Source: a virus
Lineage: Duplodnaviria > Heunggongvirae > Uroviricota > Caudoviricetes
Virus record (IMG/VR): IMGVR_UViG_2740892439_000006
Span: 1 to 53,794 of that record
Reading direction: 5' to 3' (one strand)
Length of the DNA: 53,794 nt
Shown: in pieces, positions 25,844 to 39,769 of the stretch
Numbering within the stretch: the stretch's first letter is position 1
Layout of the letters: each line of letters starts with the position of its first letter
Made by a program: the position numbers and the translations under genes
Notes under the pieces: generated by a model
The model's database searches: none
Told to the model about the DNA's origin: nothing
The model's input: only the letters and a program-made list of their open reading frames with translations

Positions 25844-25887
25844 CCATTTGTGTTAGATAATTAATATGTATTTTCTAACACAAATGG
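25844..25887. promoter_or_regulatory. palindromic operator-like site D (perfect 14-bp arms, TGTTAGA-N16-TCTAACA core)
   Basis: ccatttgtgttaga ... tctaacacaaatgg immediately upstream of rdgC start. Confidence 0.55.
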
Positions 25888-25893
25888 TGAGAC

Positions 25894-26799
25894 ATGAGAT
25901 CAGTCGCTTTCAAAAATATCTTCATCTATCGTCTTTCACGCGAAGTTAGCTGGGATACTGCAGAAGTAAATGCAGCCCTTAGCAAGTTTGTGTTTACCCC
26001 ATGCGGTTCTCAGGATATGGCTAAAGCTGGTTGGACCCCCGTTCTTGGCGACAACCTCACCCATGAATACCAAGGTTTTCTTCTGATACAGCATAAACGA
26101 GAGGAAAAAATCCTACCCTCTCAAGTGCTCAAAGAAGAGTTACAGAAAAAAATCCTGACACTTGAAGAAGAGCAAGACAGAAAGCTGAAGAAGACTGAAA
26201 AAGATTCGCTGAAGGATGAAGTGCTTCACTCTCTGCTTCCTCGTGCTTTCACGAGAAAATCAGTCGCTAAAATCCTGATAGACCGAAGCAATCATCTGGT
26301 TTTTGTCGAGGCCAGCAGTGCTAAAAAAGCAGAGGATCAGCTGGCTTTGTTACGGAAATCGCTTGGCAGCTTGCCCGTTGTCCCCTTCTCTCCGAAAGAC
26401 CCATTAGAACTGACCATCACTGGCTGGATTAAAAATGGCTTCCCGAACGGTTTCCGTGCCGGTGAGGAAGCGACCTTAAAAGCATTGCTTGATGATGGCG
26501 GCGCGGTCCGCTGCAAAAAAGTGGACCTGCTATCCGACGAGATCATGAGTCATATAGAAGCTGGTAAGGTTGCAACCACAGTTGCGGTTAACTGGCAAGA
26601 CCGTGCATTTTTCAGACTGAATGACGATATGAGTATCAAGGCTTTGTCGTTCAGCGACGAATTGTACGACCAGAACGACGATATTGATCGAGAGGATGTT
26701 GCGCAACGATTTGACGCTGACTTTATCCTGTTTACTGCTGAATTATCCGCGATGTTCACTTCGCTGGTGGAGGCCGTTGGTGGTGAAGCAGAACGTTAA
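25894..26799 (+). CDS. rdgC: recombination-associated protein RdgC homolog
   Basis: [76 protein letters not shown] match E. coli RdgC as recalled. Confidence 0.85.
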
Positions 26800-26812
26800 C
26801 AATAGACCTCTG

Positions 26813-27463
26813 ATGGTGAGTCTTTGTGATTTCACGGGGAAAATGGTCGCCCCCTGGCTGGAGCATGGTATAGATGCTGTTATCGTCGATCCACAACACG
26901 CAGAGACCAGAGATGAGCTGATGCAATCAGGCGCAGTTCTGACACGTATCAGTGCGATTATCGATAGTGATGAAGTTTATGCTTTTCTCCGAAATAATTT
27001 ACAACGTATTGTGTTTTTAGCTGGTTTTCCGCCGTGCACGGACCTTGCTGTTTCCGGTGCGCGCTGGTTTGCGCATAAGGCTGACAAAGATCCGTTTTTC
27101 CAGTTCAAAGCGATGCAGGTCGTCTGGCAGTGTTACGATATTGCAAAGATGATTGGTTGCCCGTACATGATTGAAAACCCGGTCAGCCAAATATCGACAT
27201 TCTGGCGTAAACCTGATCACATCTTCCATCCTTACCACTTCACTGCATATTGCAAGGAAGACAATTACACCAAAAAAACATGCCTCTGGAGCGGGCAAGG
27301 CTTTGTCATGCCTGATGCCCTAATGGACGAATCATTAGGCAAGCCAGATAACAGAATCCATACCGCGCCACCTGGACCTGAAAGGGCTAATTTTCGAAGT
27401 GCTACTCCGCATGGATTCGCAAAGGCAGTTTTCGAAGCGAATAAGGGGGTGCTCTATGAGTAA
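26813..27463 (+). CDS. C5-cytosine methyltransferase-like protein (short, no obvious TRD)
   Basis: FLAGFPPCTDLAVSG (PC motif IV-like) and MIENPV (ENV motif VI-like); start at ATG 26813 just after rdgC stop. Confidence 0.4.
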   Translation: MVSLCDFTGKMVAPWLEHGIDAVIVDPQHAETRDELMQSGAVLTRISAIIDSDEVYAFLRNNLQRIVFLAGFPPCTDLAVSGARWFAHKADKDPFFQFKAMQVVWQCYDIAKMIGCPYMIENPVSQISTFWRKPDHIFHPYHFTAYCKEDNYTKKTCLWSGQGFVMPDALMDESLGKPDNRIHTAPPGPERANFRSATPHGFAKAVFEANKGVLYE

Positions 27464-28361
27464 ATCTATAGCAAGCATAGCCATAGAAAAACAGGATACG
27501 ATGGCTGAAATTAGCTATATGCGCACCATTCGGACTCAGGATGAATATGAGCGCCCGATCTTCAAATGGGTAGGCGGTAAATTCTCAGAGTTGCCTACAG
27601 TGCTTGAGCATCTACCACACGGCAAGCGGTTAATAGAACCATTCGTTGGTGGCGGTTCCGTATTTACAAATGCAGGATTTCGCCACAACCTGCTTAATGA
27701 TATTAACGGTGACCTGATTAACTTCTATCAGACATTGCAGCGAGAAGGACATTCGCTCGTCACGCTGTCATATAGTTTTTTCCAAAATTACAACAACGCT
27801 GACGCTTACCTCGAAGTGCGTGAGGCATTTAACAGAGGAAAGTATGACCAGCTACATCATGCTGCCGCCTTTTTGTACCTTAATCGGCACTGTTTTAATG
27901 GCGTAACGCGGTACAACCAAAATGGCGAGTTCAACGTGGGGTATGGCAAATACAAAGCGCCCTACTTCCCACATGCAGAGATGGAGGCATTTTTGGCTGA
28001 TGACGTACTCAAAAACACGTCCTTTGTATCAGGTGACTTTGCTGGCGTCATCGAGGCGGCTGGTGAAGGCGATGTGATTTTTTGCGATCCGCCGTATGAA
28101 CCGCTGCCGGATACAGAAGGGTTTACCAGTTATTCAGGAAATAGCTTCCGTTTCGACGAACAGAAACGGCTGGTATCTCTATTGGTGGAAGCCCACCAGC
28201 GCGGCGCTAAGGTAGTGATAACAAATAGTGGTGCGCCAAACATCCGTGAACTATATGAAGGAAACGGGTTTAAAGTACATCATATGGCAGCCAGACGGTC
28301 GGTGTCCTGCAAGGCGTCAACACGTGTAGTTGCTAACGATATAATTGCAATAATGAAGTAA
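27456..28361 (+). CDS. dam: DNA adenine methyltransferase (Dam family)
   Basis: FKWVGGK, EPFVGGGSV, FLYLNRHCFNGVTRYN, CDPPY motifs; start at MSKSIASIA with RBS aggggg overlapping upstream stop. Confidence 0.8.
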   Translation: MSKSIASIAIEKQDTMAEISYMRTIRTQDEYERPIFKWVGGKFSELPTVLEHLPHGKRLIEPFVGGGSVFTNAGFRHNLLNDINGDLINFYQTLQREGHSLVTLSYSFFQNYNNADAYLEVREAFNRGKYDQLHHAAAFLYLNRHCFNGVTRYNQNGEFNVGYGKYKAPYFPHAEMEAFLADDVLKNTSFVSGDFAGVIEAAGEGDVIFCDPPYEPLPDTEGFTSYSGNSFRFDEQKRLVSLLVEAHQRGAKVVITNSGAPNIRELYEGNGFKVHHMAARRSVSCKASTRVVANDIIAIMK

Positions 28362-28393
28362 AAAACGCCGCAGTAGCGGCGTTTACTTTTTTA
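28362..28393. terminator. bidirectional rho-independent terminator between dam and glnS
   Basis: stem cgccgc/gcggcg, loop agta, A5 upstream and T-run downstream. Confidence 0.7.
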
Positions 28394-28409: not shown

Positions 28410-30071
28410 TTAACCTAACTTCGCCCAGGTATCACGCAGCCCAACGGTGCGGTTAAATACCGGTTTTTCCGCCGTGGAATGGCGGCTGTCGAGGCAGAAA
28501 TAACCTTCACGCTCAAACTGGAATGCTTTACCCGCTACCGCGTCTTTCAGCGACGGTTCAGCAAAACCCTGTTTGATCACCAGCGATTCCGGGTTAATCA
28601 CCGACAGGAAATCATCCGCAGCACCTGGGTTCGGCACGCTGAACAGACGATCGTACAGGCGGATTTCAACCGGCAGCGCATGTGCCGCGCTCACCCAGTG
28701 AATAACGCCTTTCACTTTACGACCATCTGCCGGATCTTTGCTTAAGGTGTCGGCGTCATAAGTACAGAAGATGGTGGTGATATTGCCTTCGGCATCTTTC
28801 TCCACGCGTTCAGCCTTAATGACGTAAGCATTACGCAGACGCACTTCTTTACCCAGCACCAGACGTTTGTACTGCTTGTTAGCTTCTTCGCGGAAATCGG
28901 CGCGGTCGATCCAAATCTCACCGCTAAACGGCACCTGACGGCTACCCATTTCCGGTTTGTTTGGATGGTTCGGCATGGTGACCATTTCGCCTTCGCCCTG
29001 GTAGTTTTCGATAACCAGTTTCACCGGATCGATAACCGCCATTGCGCGCGGGGCATTTTCGTTGAGATCTTCACGGATGCAGGATTCCAGCGACGCCATT
29101 TCAATGGTGTTGTCCTGCTTGGTCACGCCGATGCGTTTGCAGAACTCACGAATAGAAGCCGCAGTGTAACCACGACGACGCAGACCGGAAATGGTCGGCA
29201 TACGCGGGTCATCCCAGCCTTCAACGTGCTTGTCGGTCACCAGCAGGTTCAGCTTACGCTTGGACATCACAGTGTATTCCAGATTCAGGCGCGAGAATTC
29301 GTACTGGCGCGGGTGAACAGGAATGGTGATGTTGTCCAGTACCCAGTCATACAGACGACGGTTGTCCTGGAACTCAAGCGTACACAGAGAGTGCGTAATA
29401 CCTTCCAGCGCATCGCTGATGCAGTGGGTAAAGTCGTACATCGGGTAGATGCACCACTTGTTACCAGTCTGGTGGTGTTCAGCAAATTTAATGCGGTACA
29501 GCACCGGATCGCGCATTACGATAAATGGCGACGCCATGTCGATTTTCGCACGCAGGCAGGCTTTACCTTCTTCAAAACCACCGGCACGCATTTTTTCGAA
29601 CAGCGCCAGGTTCTCTTCAACGCTGCGGTCGCGGTACGGGCTGTTTTTACCCGGCTGCGTCAGGGTGCCACGATATTCGCGGATCTGTTCCGGCGTCAGT
29701 TCATCAACGTACGCCAGGCCTTTATTGATCAGTTCAACAGCATAGGCATGGAGTTTGTCAAAATAATCGGAGGAGTAACGGATGTTGCCAGACCAGTGAA
29801 AACCTAACCATTCAACGTCGTTTTTAATCGACTCGACGTACTCGATATCTTCTTTTACCGGGTTAGTGTCGTCGAAACGCAGGTTGCACTGGCCTTTATA
29901 GTCCTGGGCGATCCCGAAGTTCAGGCAGATAGATTTCGCATGACCAATATGCAGATAGCCATTCGGTTCCGGCGGGAAACGGGTATGTACTGTGGTGTGC
30001 TTACCACTGGCCAGATCTTCATCGATGATCTGACGAATAAAGTTAGTCGGGCGGGCTTCTGCCTCACTCAT
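28410..30071 (-). CDS. glnS: glutaminyl-tRNA synthetase
   Basis: 553 aa; N-terminus [24 protein letters not shown] and HIGH-type motif region match E. coli GlnS as recalled; extreme C-terminus reads ...DTWAKLG. Confidence 0.95.
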
Positions 30072-33121: not shown

Positions 33122-33406
33122 ATGAGCGCAATAGCCACCAGCGACACCCTTTGTTCTGGTCACGGAGGATTTCCGCCGCGACTGGTAGCTGAAACCGTTC
33201 CCTGGTTCACCGTTAACGGTAAGCCAGTTGTTGTAGATGGTGCCATGTTTCCCAGTCACACTGACGGTAACAGTGCACATCCAGGGGCAGCTGTATCGAC
33301 GCGAGTATGGTTTTCGATAGGTGGAAAGGGAGTTGTCTGTGTAGGCGATCCGCTTTCTTGTGGTTCTGTTATCGCCAACGGCGAGGATATTTTTCAGGTT
33401 GCATAA
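33122..33406 (+). CDS. PAAR-like spike-tip protein (tentative)
   Basis: 94 aa, Gly-rich, GKGVVCVGDPLSCGSVIANGED motif; RBS aggagg. Confidence 0.4.
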   Translation: MSAIATSDTLCSGHGGFPPRLVAETVPWFTVNGKPVVVDGAMFPSHTDGNSAHPGAAVSTRVWFSIGGKGVVCVGDPLSCGSVIANGEDIFQVA

Positions 33407-34212
33407 TGCTTGATTCAATAGGTGAAGTTAAAGCCTTCAAAATTCTGTCAGATGCCGGTATCTCTACACCAGAATCTATAACCATAAGCCGGGCAGCTTC
33501 TGTAAAAGCCTCATCGCTCGCCAGCGCCATACAGGGAATAGTTCACGCCGATAAAACCTATCCTGATTCTGTTTCGGCCTGGACTACTCAATTGCTTGGC
33601 TTTTCTGAACAGCTCAATGAGGCCAGCAAAGCGTCTTCATTACTGGCTGATTCTCTTTCCCCATACACCAAGCCATCAGAGCTGTTACAGATGAAGATTG
33701 GCTGGGAATGCTACGCAAAAGGTAACGAGCTGACCCCCATACCTGCTTTCGCCCTTGTTGAGGGAATGGGGAATGTTTCCATTCCGCAATCCCTAACGGA
33801 CGCATTGACGGCGCTAAAACTTGATGCTCTGAAAACCGCCATGAACGCCATTAACGCAAAAATTGAAGCTGCCGGAAGTGCTGGTGGTGGTGAAAGCGAT
33901 GGTGGACAGGGTGGTGCTGGGGGCGCTCAGGCTCCAGTCATTACTCAGGATGAAATTGATGCTTTACGGGAAGCAGTGACAGCCGCCGAAGTTTTACTCT
34001 CCGAAATTAACTCAGCAAGTGAGGGTGTCGTAGCCCTTACAGGTCGCATTAAAACGTCAACCACTCAGGCAACCAAAGGTTTAGAGAACGCTGTCGCCAT
34101 CACGTTAACTGGTTCTCTACTGGATAATGCAGTAATGAGTCCGGCAATCAGTTTAATCATGCCACAAGGCGTTATCGATGCGCTCCAAAAGAACACCAAA
34201 AAGGAACCATAG
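33406..34212 (+). CDS. hypothetical virion-associated protein
   Basis: 268 aa from MLDSIGEV, TAATG overlap with upstream stop; Gly-rich linker. Confidence 0.4.
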   Translation: MLDSIGEVKAFKILSDAGISTPESITISRAASVKASSLASAIQGIVHADKTYPDSVSAWTTQLLGFSEQLNEASKASSLLADSLSPYTKPSELLQMKIGWECYAKGNELTPIPAFALVEGMGNVSIPQSLTDALTALKLDALKTAMNAINAKIEAAGSAGGGESDGGQGGAGGAQAPVITQDEIDALREAVTAAEVLLSEINSASEGVVALTGRIKTSTTQATKGLENAVAITLTGSLLDNAVMSPAISLIMPQGVIDALQKNTKKEP

Positions 34213-34741: not shown

Positions 34742-34907
34742 TTACTCCCCTTGTTTAGTGCCAGAGGACACGCCAGTGCTGTTAAACAAGTATCCGACAT
34801 ACGCTGAACAGTTATTCAGCACGATCGACGAATGCAACCAACGAAACGCACTGAATAACCAAAGAAACAGGGAGATTTGGGAAGGGAAGGGGGATCAAGG
34901 CTCCTGA
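34575..34907 (+). CDS. Rz1-like outer-membrane lipoprotein spanin
   Basis: Lipobox LSGC after signal peptide; overlaps Rz-like gene in another frame. Confidence 0.5.
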   Translation: MKSLALKMRYAVLGLTMCVCLMTLSGCSGNGQKPSTSVPVKITVEATSKPQANLIDYSPCLVPEDTPVLLNKYPTYAEQLFSTIDECNQRNALNNQRNREIWEGKGDQGS

Positions 34908-35353
34908 AGCCAGATGTCCTGGCTGTCAGCTTCTTCGAAACCGTGACAGACGTTAAAGTCACTCAAGCGATACTGACGCTGACGGCCTCTATTTCGCTCA
35001 TGCCAATGCATATATCCACCAGCAAATGCCAGCGGACAATCACTATAGTCTATGTAACCAATACCATTCCCCAAACGTGCTTCGCGCGCACCGGCTTTCC
35101 AGGACAGTAGAAAAGAGTCACGATCCGCCAGCATAACAACAAAATCGTCCGGATCTCCGATACAGTGAAGAATACCTGCCTTACATAACTGCTTGAGCGC
35201 TTTGGACTGGCTCAGGATGTCTTCTCCGTAATACTGAAAACAATCATCAACAACAGCGGGATAGCCTGCCGGGGGATTCAGGCTGGTTGGTATAGCTGAC
35301 GCGATCGACAGCATTAAGCGATATTGTGTTTTTGATGGGTTAACGTGGCTCAT
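34895..35353 (-). CDS. hypothetical protein
   Basis: 152 aa ORF. Confidence 0.4.
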   Translation of the reverse strand: MSHVNPSKTQYRLMLSIASAIPTSLNPPAGYPAVVDDCFQYYGEDILSQSKALKQLCKAGILHCIGDPDDFVVMLADRDSFLLSWKAGAREARLGNGIGYIDYSDCPLAFAGGYMHWHERNRGRQRQYRLSDFNVCHGFEEADSQDIWLQEP

Positions 35354-35762: not shown

Positions 35763-35777
35763 AACTCTAATGATTTG

Positions 35778-35808
35778 TGTTAGAAAACTAAAATTAAATC
35801 ACATAACA
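35778..35808. promoter_or_regulatory. operator-like site E (good left half, degenerate right half)
   Basis: gTGTTAGAAAACTAAAAT shares 17-bp core with site A; sits between divergent genes upstream of structural operon. Confidence 0.35.
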
Positions 35809-35919: not shown

Positions 35920-37617
35920 GTGAATAAAAACATTCAGCCAGCTCGTGATCGCGAGCGCGAGATTATGAATCGGGCGGCAAGCGTCATGGCTATGACCGTC
36001 GATCCGACCACCGATGCAGCAGGCAACATGATTGCTGACCAGGCAGTAATGATGGAAAACCTGGATAAAGCAATCCAGAAAGTGCCTATGTTTGAAGGCG
36101 TAAATCCAGAGGTCGCTCGTCAGATCACTGGTGGGTGGGCTATGTCTCTGCATGAGTATAAACGTCAACATGGTCATTACCCGGCAAGTGACATCCTGGC
36201 GAACGCACACATGGCTCTTGAACGCCTGATGACTGAATGTGCCAGTGATACCCATGAAGGCACGGGTAAGGCAATGTTTGAGTCTGTCGCGCAATCAATG
36301 CGTAGCTCTGACGGCGTAATGAAAGTTGCTCAATATGCTGCTCTAATTCTGCCTGCCTCTCTGGGCGCTGCTACCAGTGATGCCTGTACTTTTGTTCCTT
36401 GTGATCGTGACGAGTCAAATATTTATGAACTGGTCAACGTAGCAGGCACAAAATTCGGCACCTTCAAACAAGGTGACGAACTGAATATGCAGTCAGCTGG
36501 TGTTTATTCTCAAATGAAGCGCCTGTATACCCTTTCCACTAAAGGGGATGGCAGCACCAAAACCTTCCAGTTCGACATCCAAAATTTTGAGGGACAATCC
36601 TGCCCGCTTCGCGCTGGTTATAACAAACTGCTGATCAACCGCAAACCGTCCAAAGTTGACGACGGCGATGGCAACCTTTATTTCAATGCTAAAGACAGCA
36701 AAGGTAATGCTTTCTCAGCGACTGCCAAAGTTGCCTATGACACTGGTGTCATTGACATTACATTTACCCAGGCTCCGCCAGAAGGTACTGAAATTGCTGT
36801 TCAGGTCGAAATTAACATCGAGCGCAATCCAAGCCTGATTCCGGTGATCAACCAGGCTATGCGTAAGTACGAAGTTCGTCCGTCCCAGTACGTAATTGCT
36901 TCCGAACACACGGTAATGTCCGCATCCGATTTAAGCCGTGAGCACGGCCTTGAATTAGCGGCACTTCAGTTCTCCGCGATGCGTAACTGGATCTCCCATG
37001 AAACCGACATCATGCGTCTGCGCACCCTGGTATTCCATACCGTTTATGGTCGTGAATTTGATGTGGCTCTGCCGGAAGCTCAAAACTATGAGTCCTGGGT
37101 CGGCCTCCTGCGTCACGTAGTAAACGCTCTGTCTCAAGAAATGGCAAATCGTACCCTGACAACGGGTATTCGTGGCGGCTTTGCTGGTGGTGACGCCGCG
37201 AACTTCCTGCGCTCTCTGCCTCCACAGCACTTCCAGATCGCACCAGGTTACGTTCAGTCGCCGTATGTACAGTACATCGGCACCCTGTTTGGCACGATTC
37301 GTATTTACGAAGTGCCGCAACCTGTCTGTGAGCAATTCCAGGCACAGGGATATGACTTCGGGCTGGATGACATCTTCTTCTATGGGCGTGGCGAAGGCAT
37401 CGGTAAAGCCGGTCTGATTGCTGGTGATGCAGTCCCAGCAATCCCTTACGTGCACGAAACCAATCCGTCTCTCGTTAACCGTACCACTCTCTGGGGCAGT
37501 GCCATCAACGAAGTACATCCTCGCAACGGTGAAAACTACTTCACCCGCCTGCGTCTGACTCGTGCCAAAGAAGGTGCTATCGACATGCTGACAGGCAAGG
37601 TTAACGAAAAAAAGTGA
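35920..37617 (+). CDS. large structural protein (putative major head protein)
   Basis: 565 aa; GTG start; position directly upstream of Ig-like and sheath genes. Confidence 0.4.
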   Translation: MNKNIQPARDREREIMNRAASVMAMTVDPTTDAAGNMIADQAVMMENLDKAIQKVPMFEGVNPEVARQITGGWAMSLHEYKRQHGHYPASDILANAHMALERLMTECASDTHEGTGKAMFESVAQSMRSSDGVMKVAQYAALILPASLGAATSDACTFVPCDRDESNIYELVNVAGTKFGTFKQGDELNMQSAGVYSQMKRLYTLSTKGDGSTKTFQFDIQNFEGQSCPLRAGYNKLLINRKPSKVDDGDGNLYFNAKDSKGNAFSATAKVAYDTGVIDITFTQAPPEGTEIAVQVEINIERNPSLIPVINQAMRKYEVRPSQYVIASEHTVMSASDLSREHGLELAALQFSAMRNWISHETDIMRLRTLVFHTVYGREFDVALPEAQNYESWVGLLRHVVNALSQEMANRTLTTGIRGGFAGGDAANFLRSLPPQHFQIAPGYVQSPYVQYIGTLFGTIRIYEVPQPVCEQFQAQGYDFGLDDIFFYGRGEGIGKAGLIAGDAVPAIPYVHETNPSLVNRTTLWGSAINEVHPRNGENYFTRLRLTRAKEGAIDMLTGKVNEKK

Positions 37618-38110: not shown

Positions 38111-39769
38111 ATGAATAAGATTAGTTTTTCGGTAGGGCAGGCAGCTGGCGTTGCTGTAATGTCAGTAAATGCTGACGCTACCCTCACCAATACCAGCGGT
38201 GGCGCATCCGTCTTTGCTGGGCTTGTAATATCGCGTCGTGGCGCACCGGGTAAGGTACTGAAAGTTGACGATACGACTTATCAAAGCGTATTAGGTTCAC
38301 CGATTCACCCTCGCCAGGGCGCGGCATTTGAACCATATCGCCACGTGGAGCGTGCAGTAAAAGGCGGCTCTGGATATGTCGTTCGAGTTTGCGCTAAAGA
38401 CATGAAGGTGCCGGGTATTTCTGTTTCCGTTGTGGGCAAAGCAAAAGCGGCAAAGGCGAGCAAAGAACTTTCCGTTGAACCTACTGAAACCACAGTAAAT
38501 CCAGGTGACACATTAAGCGTTGGTGTTGCTTCAACTGCAACGACTCAATCAGTGTCCTTCACACCCAAAGAGACGCCCCAGATTAAAGGTGAAGAGAAGG
38601 CATTATTCTTCATCAAAGATGGTGATGCATCTCAAAATCGCACGTTATCACTAACTCGCGATGATGAAGAAAGCGAACTCTTTACGCTGACGCTGAAAGA
38701 AAAACAAACCGATGGGTCCATTGAGGTGCTGGAAAGCCACCAAGTGTCTTTCAATCCAGAAGGCACTAACGACATGGGCCAACCAGCATGGATTCCGACA
38801 CTGCTTGAAAGCCAGTCCACTCGCATTGGTGCCGTACTGGCAGATAATGCAGAAGCATCCGCTGCTCAACTCATTTTTGAGGATGTAGCTTTTGAAGGTG
38901 GTACTGATGGAGATCTGTCCGAAATTGACACTGAAGACTATCTGGAAGCATTAAAGGTTCTCGAAGCTTCAGAGGTTAATTACACCGCATTGCTGTCACT
39001 GGGTTGTTATGACGCATCCGCCTTAGCCGCAATCAAAAAGCTGGCTGAAGATGTTCGCGTAGACATGTTCTATGACCTGAAGGGCAACCAGACACCTGAA
39101 AACGCTATTTCAGAAGCGAAAAGCCATAGTTTTGGCGGCTCACATCAACCAAGCCGTTACTACTTCCCGCTCTCCTGCCGAGATACTTTCACTGGAATGA
39201 ATGTCGTCTATGGCATTAGCTGCGACGCATTCGTAGCGAAAGCAAAAGGAGTGGCGCTGGTACCGGATGTTGGTGGTTGGCATTACGCACCGGCAGGTAT
39301 ATCACGCGCGATTATTGATCGACAGAACATTGCCCGAATTCCAAATATCGGTGCAGTTGATCGTGAAGCGTTCGTTCTTGCGCGCATTAATCCAGTTTCA
39401 GTTGCTGCTGACGGGTCCGTTTACATTGACGACTCTTTAACAACTTACAGCAAAAACAACTATCTGCGATTCCAGCATGTGTCTTCCTTGATGAACGCCA
39501 TCGCCAGAGATTTCTATGAAGTAGCTCAGGCGATTAAGCACGAACCGGATGGCATTACCAAAGAAACGCTAATGAAAGCAATGACTGAATTGCTTGACCG
39601 TTACGTTGCAGCCGGTGCGCTGGTTACTCCACGTGACAAGTCCCAGGGTGAAGATCCATATGTTGTTCAGGTTGTCCAAAAGGACATCGATCTGTGGGAA
39701 GTGTCCTGGTCTGTTTGTCCGACCGGTACAGCTCGCCGAATCGTCGGTAAGCCAATTCTGATGCGCTGA
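38111..39769 (+). CDS. contractile tail sheath protein
   Basis: 552 aa; C-terminal GWHYAPAGISRAII and LRFQHVSSLMNAIARDF resemble conserved sheath segments (T4 gp18 WMSPAGYNRG / VRRLFNM). Confidence 0.6.
   Translation: MNKISFSVGQAAGVAVMSVNADATLTNTSGGASVFAGLVISRRGAPGKVLKVDDTTYQSVLGSPIHPRQGAAFEPYRHVERAVKGGSGYVVRVCAKDMKVPGISVSVVGKAKAAKASKELSVEPTETTVNPGDTLSVGVASTATTQSVSFTPKETPQIKGEEKALFFIKDGDASQNRTLSLTRDDEESELFTLTLKEKQTDGSIEVLESHQVSFNPEGTNDMGQPAWIPTLLESQSTRIGAVLADNAEASAAQLIFEDVAFEGGTDGDLSEIDTEDYLEALKVLEASEVNYTALLSLGCYDASALAAIKKLAEDVRVDMFYDLKGNQTPENAISEAKSHSFGGSHQPSRYYFPLSCRDTFTGMNVVYGISCDAFVAKAKGVALVPDVGGWHYAPAGISRAIIDRQNIARIPNIGAVDREAFVLARINPVSVAADGSVYIDDSLTTYSKNNYLRFQHVSSLMNAIARDFYEVAQAIKHEPDGITKETLMKAMTELLDRYVAAGALVTPRDKSQGEDPYVVQVVQKDIDLWEVSWSVCPTGTARRIVGKPILMR

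Follow-up and report, generated by a model that had tools for sequence, protein, structure and literature searches.

The 53,794-nucleotide stretch of viral DNA analysed here (the window) carries a short gene (26783-27463, plus strand) that probably encodes an active orphan C5-cytosine methyltransferase (C5-MTase), a member of a minimal phage family without a recognition domain, co-expressed with a Dam-type enzyme as a DNA-marking and anti-restriction cassette. The homology, fold, motif conservation, purifying selection and gene context on which this reading is based were computed here. The formation of 5-methylcytosine (5mC) is taken from the literature on a 37% identical homologue, and we infer the activity, target and timing of the window protein.

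Annotations of the family already exist in the record of phage D6, in PHROGs and in the BASEL phages, and one of its members has been the subject of functional work. For the window the result is mostly confirmatory, in that it bears out the proposal made for this gene by the D6 annotators in GenBank. Very many phages carry the family, yet it is invisible to Pfam, NCBIfam and PADLOC, and the copies of the gene on E. coli plasmids are entered in RefSeq as 'hypothetical protein', so that methylome and restriction-evasion analyses can miss it. As a natural C5-MTase stripped of its recognition domain, the protein (the short MTase) turns target choice into an experimentally tractable question of enzymology, and raises the question of whether the clade of D6, with its CDxTG motif, behaves like the clade found in Drexlerviridae.

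Start Codon and Reading Frame of the Short MTase Gene

The frame at 26813-27463 on the plus strand is a real open reading frame in the window, and the two motifs named in the original prediction lie where it had placed them, FLAGFPPCTDLAVSG being encoded at nt 27014-27058 and MIENPV at nt 27167-27184. The short frame thus stood, while the length of ~217 aa given for it did not, as translation from ATG 26813 yields 216 aa. Moreover, the true start is probably GTG 26783, from which the protein has 226 aa. This start is the likelier one because GGAGG is located at 26769-26773, 9 nt before the GTG; because phage D6 reads GTT, not ATG, where the window has ATG 26813; because the codons preceding that ATG (N-R-P-L) show only synonymous changes compared with D6 and are therefore translated; and because gene callers independently predict a protein of 226 aa (P0001, 151 member sequences). 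A gene beginning at GTG 26783 shares 17 nt with the end of the rdgC/hrdC gene upstream, including its stop codon.

Comparison of the short MTase gene with its D6 orthologue gave a dN/dS of 0.09 which, together with the conservation described below, is, judged from the sequences, the mark of an enzyme under selection rather than of a protein in decay or with a structural role only. An A7 homopolymer at 27272-27278 encodes the conserved Lys-Lys pair of the short MTase, and a 179-aa variant (P0006; 10 sequences on 4 contigs) is frameshifted exactly at this run. The closest E. coli plasmid assembly, NZ_CP031917, contains frameshifts in rdgC, the short MTase gene, Dam and glnS, which makes sequencing error as likely as real slippage at the A7 run.

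A Widespread Family of Short Phage Proteins

The short MTase matched PHROG 757 ('DNA methyltransferase') with an E value of 8.9e-78, residues 2-214 aligning with profile positions 18-222 of 247. Its homologues fall into 6,933 clusters at 90% identity and are represented by 2,621 sequences at 50% identity (E <= 0.001). Given this profile match, the 6,933 homologous clusters and the dN/dS of 0.09, the homology is far beyond chance. Matches to the family were found in 1,573 of 50,697 phage records, mainly Drexlerviridae of Escherichia and Klebsiella, including most Drexlerviridae and the Klebsiella Webervirus, with rV5-like phages, D6-like phage-plasmids and further phages as other carriers; homologues in Arthrobacter phages are 54% identical to the short MTase. 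Nearly all members are 200-280 aa long, which makes the short length normal for the family and not a sign of truncation, and homologues from phages of Proteobacteria, Actinobacteria and others keep the same length and both termini. Restriction digests reported for a Webervirus that has a family gene tell us nothing about specificity, and our literature search returned no methylome or biochemical data on the family beyond the retron work described below, nor any on the D6 clade.

The short MTase matched nothing in Pfam or NCBIfam, and nothing in PADLOC, including its models of restriction-modification (RM) methyltransferases. PDB sequences likewise yielded no significant match, whether the query was the short MTase itself or either of two family profiles. 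The original prediction had proposed an HMM search with PF00145 and a structure prediction as checks. The HMM search was negative at threshold for the short MTase, with no match even at E <= 1; across the family PF00145 is the commonest sub-threshold Pfam match, found in 8 of 129 members with a best E value of 0.0039. Structure prediction returned the fold of a C5-MTase catalytic domain, as described below. Sequence HMMs alone would, given the negative PF00145 result, have led us to reject the methyltransferase idea wrongly.

Some relatives depart from the usual size. The family member P0218 (548 aa) contains an intein-like insertion of ~330 residues at the catalytic Cys (GFPP/C...HN/CTNLSVSG, with slashes at the junctions), a typical position for inteins directed at essential active sites. 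Two proteins of uncultured phages in BFVD, A0A6J5SE15 (1397 aa) and A0A6J5NPY6 (1126 aa), one of them annotated as a helicase/UvrB N-terminal protein, contain a domain that matches the short MTase structurally (Foldseek E ~3e-07), suggesting that the MTase core also serves as a module in giant multidomain phage proteins.

Conserved Motifs and Predicted Fold

To describe conservation we use an alignment of 129 diverse family members and residue numbers of the 216-aa form; the motif coordinates below are all on the plus strand. C75, E121 and P123 are invariant (129/129), and at least 90% conservation is seen at G19, D26, P73, G82, K89, N122, F138, P140 and Y152 as well as at K154, T156, W159, P167, R195, P199, G201 and A205. 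The putative catalytic Cys75 (Cys85 in the 226-aa form) belongs to motif IV, G-F-P-P-C (27023-27037), and is the counterpart of C82 in Dcm of phage K42, the studied homologue. Motif VI reads E-N-P (27173-27181), the equivalent of ENV, to which it aligns in E. coli Dcm; its Glu and Pro are the invariant E121 and P123, and the Glu corresponds to E128 of K42 Dcm. The longer stretches GFPPCTDLAVSG and IENPV are likewise present and family-invariant, and align with GFPCQPFSLAG and LENV of Dcm.

Motif I is degenerate, as the original prediction had it. At 26822-26839 the short MTase has L-C-D-F-T-G, aligned by hhalign to FAGIGG of Dcm, in place of the canonical F-x-G-x-G; C-D-F-T-G keeps only the last Gly, and a bulky residue replaces the first. 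Family-wide, the first position of the motif is F in 55, C in 45 and Y in 24 of the 129 members, and the position of the first Gly is variable. The Asp of motif III seems to be displaced, position 48 being Ala in the short MTase versus Asp in 87 of 129 members, with D51 present in the D6 clade. As motifs I and III are both degenerate in the D6 clade, cofactor binding is not guaranteed. The residues of the putative cofactor pocket (L4, C5, D6, T8, G9, P14, W15, G19, D26-P-Q-H and D51) show little or no variation within the clade.

Motif VIII, QxRxR, is absent from the short MTase, and the equivalent strand reads Y-T-K-K-T-C-L-W. The T-K-K-T of this strand (27269-27280) marks the start of strand β7 at the position equivalent to motif VIII, with K154 conserved in 126/129 and T156 in 125/129 members, and its K154/K155 pair is the counterpart of K175/K176 in K42 Dcm. 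Near the C terminus, R-S-A-T-P-x-G-F-A-x-A-V (27395-27430) contains R195, P199, G201 and A205, all among the positions conserved at 90% or more, and includes a helix (residues 200-210) that in the model looks like a collapsed motif IX/X.

The AlphaFold2 model, built with 25 homologues, has a mean pLDDT of 86.8 and a pTM of 0.85, with confidence dipping only at the loop after PPC (residues 71-90) and at residues 181-200. It is a complete, compact domain with the C5-MTase catalytic-domain fold. The best structural matches are DNA enzymes and not RNA enzymes, with DNMT3A/3B the best: DNMT3B gave a match figure of 12.5, the prophage enzyme 3g7u 12.1, the C5-carboxymethyltransferase 8yf3 11.6, DNMT3A 10.9, DNMT1 10.2, M.HhaI 10.1, M.MpeI 9.6 and M.HaeIII 9.2. 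In hhalign comparisons of the family profiles with Dcm and with a small alignment of Dcm and P1 Dmt, motifs I, IV and VI were colinear, but at a probability below 1%; the pairs with Dcm (LCDFTG/FAGIGG, GFPPCT/GFPCQ and IENPV/LENV) are, at this probability, no evidence alone. A search seeded with the C5 domain of P1 Dmt returned only near-identical P1-type Dmt proteins.

Canonical C5-MTases (PF00145) thus share with the short MTase the colinear order of motifs I, IV (PC) and VI (EN) and the PCxxxxxxG signature that follows the catalytic Cys. They have PC and ENV where the short MTase has PPC and ENP, QxRxR where it has T-K-K-T, and separate motifs IX and X where it has one collapsed C-terminal helix, and the degenerate motif I is a further difference. 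In length, the 226 aa of the short MTase compare with 472 aa for E. coli Dcm and ~470 aa for the P1 C5 domain. Another difference concerns the slot of the recognition domain, and the original prediction was right that no such domain is obvious: between TKKT and RSATPxGFAxAV the short MTase has ~40 residues, compared with 120-175 in E. coli Dcm and P1 Dmt, and in the model this segment has low pLDDT and forms no regular domain.

A Homologue Reported to Trigger Retron Ec86

The family member studied functionally is Dcm of K42, a KarlJaspers-like phage of the Drexlerviridae. K42 mutants that escape retron Ec86 disrupt the 711-bp dcm gene, and expression of K42 Dcm in vivo raised 5mC in Ec86 msDNA as measured by LC-MS, whereas a C82A/E128A/K175A/K176A mutant gave no 5mC rise in msDNA (preprint 10.1101/2023.08.16.553469). 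Expressed alone from a plasmid, K42 Dcm was enough both for the 5mC rise and for triggering the retron; its CCWGG specificity was assumed from the host Dcm, with support from msDNA mutations only, and the phage Dcm was itself toxic (preprint 10.1101/2023.08.16.553469). That this retron is activated when a phage cytosine methyltransferase methylates msDNA is stated again in a paper of 2026 (PMC12916289).

We relate the short MTase to K42 Dcm through phage FritzSarasin, whose bas04_0049 product ('Dcm-like') has 236 aa from an internal ATG, in a gene of 711 bp as published for K42, and carries C82, E128, K175 and K176 at exactly the K42 Dcm numbering. KarlJaspers was not among the best 60 records of the megablast search, so the K42 link rests on the length of the FritzSarasin gene and on this residue numbering. 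Full-length alignment of the short MTase with the 236-aa FritzSarasin protein gives 37% identity (E 2e-43), and the residues changed in the K42 Dcm mutant are all four conserved in the short MTase, as C75, E121, K154 and K155. The two proteins belong to the same family (phrog_757) and size class (236 versus 226 aa) and have FPPC, ENP, KK-T-C-L-W and R-S-x-T-P-x-G-F-A in common. In contrast, motif I of the Drexlerviridae protein is canonical (L-F-D-G-S-G), where the D6 clade has LCDFTG; the Drexlerviridae proteins have an insertion of ~14 residues before KK and another loop in the slot of the recognition domain; the Drexlerviridae gene stands alone among small early genes, whereas the window gene is coupled to rdgC and Dam; and the Drexlerviridae member is the only one with tested activity. 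As the homologue is a reported trigger of retron Ec86/Eco1, D6-like phage-plasmids may be sensed via the short MTase gene.

Gene Neighbourhood in D6-like Phage-Plasmids and in P1

Its sequence identifies the window as a D6-like E. coli phage-plasmid. The short MTase is 91% identical at the amino acid level to orf64 of phage D6, a P1-like plasmid prophage of E. coli (D6 GenBank record), and the gene order tail, baseplate, hrdC, orf64, Dam orf63, glnS is shared with D6. Orf43 of ECO1230-10 is 59% identical; the methyltransferase calls for D6 orf64 ('putative DNA-cytosine methylase') and for Orf43 are at the level of annotation only. A 2.7-kb region of the window is 97-99.6% identical at the nucleotide level to plasmids of 91-96 kb and is carried by 87 complete E. 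coli genomes.

The first gene of the cluster (25894-26799, plus strand) encodes an rdgC/hrdC-like recombination-associated protein (PF04381, E 4.8e-102; phrog_724), the counterpart of D6 orf65, 'similar to P1 hrdC'. Downstream of the short MTase gene, a Dam-type (D12 class) N6-adenine DNA methyltransferase is encoded at 27456-28361 on the plus strand (PF02086, E 1.6e-56; TIGR00571). Its ATG at 27456 lies within ATGAGTAA and overlaps the stop of the short MTase gene by 8 nt, and a Shine-Dalgarno sequence, AAGGGGG, is found 6 nt upstream of the start. A bidirectional terminator-like hairpin (28363-28384) between Dam and the convergent glnS closes the cluster. No restriction endonuclease gene is adjacent to the short MTase gene, its neighbours being rdgC, Dam and glnS. 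We therefore rejected membership of an RM system and consider the short MTase an orphan; the best PADLOC match of the window Dam is likewise an 'orphan methyltransferase'. The glnS gene (28410-30071, minus strand) is a full-length glutaminyl-tRNA synthetase gene, as is D6 orf62. More than 5,000 E. coli genomes have a chromosomal glnS that matches its 3' end with 95-99% identity, which suggests that the gene was captured from an Escherichia host.

The P1 operon uhr-hrdC-dmt is preceded by the C1 operator Odmt and by Pdmt, a promoter under C1 control (P1 record). P1 Dmt joins a canonical C5 domain (PF00145) to a Dam domain (PF02086, D12), and it occupies the slot directly after hrdC, as does the short MTase in the window. 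Residues 478-753 of P1 Dmt are 69% identical to the window Dam, and both cassettes combine a C5-type with a Dam-type methyltransferase. The C5 part of P1 is a ~470-aa PF00145 domain with a recognition domain in one polypeptide with Dam, whereas the window has separate genes, and between the short MTase and the N-terminal half of P1 Dmt there is no detectable sequence similarity. The short MTase is thus a non-orthologous replacement of the P1 C5 domain in the same slot, and the presence of a different C5-type enzyme in that slot argues for an equivalent function.

Pairing with another methyltransferase occurs elsewhere in the family. P0121 (563 aa; L006, 218-1909) joins an N-terminal domain of the short C5-like family to a C-terminal D12 Dam domain, a fusion that mirrors P1 Dmt and is known from one 2-kb contig only, and in Arthrobacter phage Coral the family gene overlaps an N6_N4 methyltransferase gene. 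Such a partner is not obligatory, as the family gene stands alone in ECO1230-10, a Pseudomonas prophage, FritzSarasin and other Drexlerviridae.

Proposed Mechanism and Alternative Readings

Most likely, all that the PHROG 757 family retains of a C5-MTase is the catalytic Rossmann-type domain. By analogy with C5-MTases, S-adenosylmethionine (SAM) would bind to the N-terminal strand-loop formed by LCDFTG and D26 of VDPQH, and the target cytosine would be flipped out; the Cys of FPPC would then attack C6, the Glu of ENP would protonate N3 and the methyl group would be transferred to C5. A loop of ~30-40 residues would replace the large target-recognition domain, in which case selectivity must come from that loop and the catalytic loop, and is probably short or relaxed. 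Translational coupling to rdgC/hrdC upstream and to Dam downstream would make the three genes a methylation cassette. Its expression is probably turned on during lytic growth or establishment, from a promoter under repressor control, and the likely role of the cassette is to mark the phage DNA and protect it against restriction.

The original prediction had left open whether the protein is a minimal enzyme, a truncated one or a non-catalytic protein with a methyltransferase fold. The family-norm length, the invariant Cys and Glu and a homologue with reported 5mC formation favour the first and leave the other two unsupported. A stricter form of the first, in which the D6 clade is a catalytic core of ~190 residues with a CDxTG loop, no QxRxR and no recognition domain, and with a selectivity that is very short, relaxed or provided in trans, is possible but rather doubtful in our estimate. 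If true, no smaller architecture for DNA cytosine methylation would be known, and the enzyme would be a broad-spectrum anti-restriction tool unseen by the current Pfam, NCBIfam and RM HMM sets. More remote is the idea that the altered cofactor loop reflects a cofactor or transferred group other than the methyl of SAM.

Among the competing explanations, the one that survives best, although we consider it unlikely, is a C5-MTase fold that serves another substrate or chemistry: single-stranded or structured DNA, RNA m5C as in Dnmt2, or a non-methyl group from a modified cofactor. The missing target-recognition domain and the degenerate motifs I and III of the D6 clade would fit, as would the only demonstrated substrate of the homologue, msDNA, which is a small single-stranded stem-loop DNA. 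The toxicity of the phage Dcm also points this way, since we would not expect it of pure CCWGG methylation in E. coli. However, the product detected for the homologue is 5mC in DNA, the gene occurs in cassettes with Dam or N6_N4 methyltransferases and at the place where P1 has its C5 domain, and DNA enzymes, not RNA enzymes, are the best structural matches.

Somewhat less probable is an enzyme that is competent but non-autonomous, targeted by the co-translated Dam-type methyltransferase or through self-association as in DNMT3 oligomers. The 8-nt overlap with the Dam gene, the natural fusion P0121, the joining of C5 and Dam in one P1 protein and the overlap with the N6_N4 gene in Coral are all consistent with a Dam-type partner, and the structural similarity to DNMT3A/3B, which work as oligomers, with self-association. 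Against this, many members (those of ECO1230-10, the Pseudomonas prophage, FritzSarasin and other Drexlerviridae) have no methyltransferase neighbour, and the P0121 fusion is confined to a single 2-kb contig. K42 Dcm, moreover, raised 5mC and triggered the retron when expressed alone from a plasmid (preprint 10.1101/2023.08.16.553469).

It is very improbable that the short MTase is a non-catalytic protein, acting in DNA binding, regulation or as a decoy after loss of cofactor binding. The D6 clade lacks the first Gly of motif I and has a displaced motif-III Asp, and no methyltransferase HMM in Pfam, NCBIfam or PADLOC recognises the short MTase, as might be expected of such a protein. Yet the nucleophilic Cys and the ENP Glu are kept in 129/129 members, the putative cofactor pocket is (nearly) invariant within the clade, the dN/dS is 0.09 and P0218 has its intein-like insertion precisely at the catalytic Cys. 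In the homologue, in addition, mutation of the active site abolishes function (preprint 10.1101/2023.08.16.553469). Finally, a truncated remnant or pseudogene of a normal-length C5-MTase that has lost its recognition domain is hardly credible: the short MTase is far shorter than the canonical enzymes (472 aa for Dcm, ~470 aa for the P1 C5 domain), but thousands of homologues share the 200-280 aa length and both termini, a family-wide distribution that rules truncation out, and the conserved C-terminal motif, strong purifying selection and complete, compact model all speak against decay.

A Candidate Operator Upstream of rdgC

For the preferred reading, an active orphan C5-MTase co-expressed with Dam, a possible control element is located in the 59-nt gap upstream of rdgC. 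There, an inverted pair with 14-bp arms, CCATTTGTGTTAGA and TCTAACACAAATGG, surrounds a -10-like GATAAT (25844-25887). The pair is conserved at the same place in phage D6; the element is also recorded at L001 3034-3073. In P1 the equivalent place is taken by the C1 operator and promoter, and we propose 25844-25887 as a candidate repressor operator and promoter of the rdgC/C5-MTase/Dam operon. The P1 C1 operator consensus has no match within the window. The exact 12-mer core of the arms, TCTAACACAAAT, is present in three copies in the window compared with 0.36 expected, and by analogy with P1 Odmt it is a candidate operator of a D6-type immunity repressor. The third copy (35771-35785) is intergenic and lies upstream of the ORF at 35920-37617, which is one of several long ORFs in the window with no Pfam match at E <= 0.001, the others being 33307-34212, 34895-35353 (minus strand) and 38111-39769.
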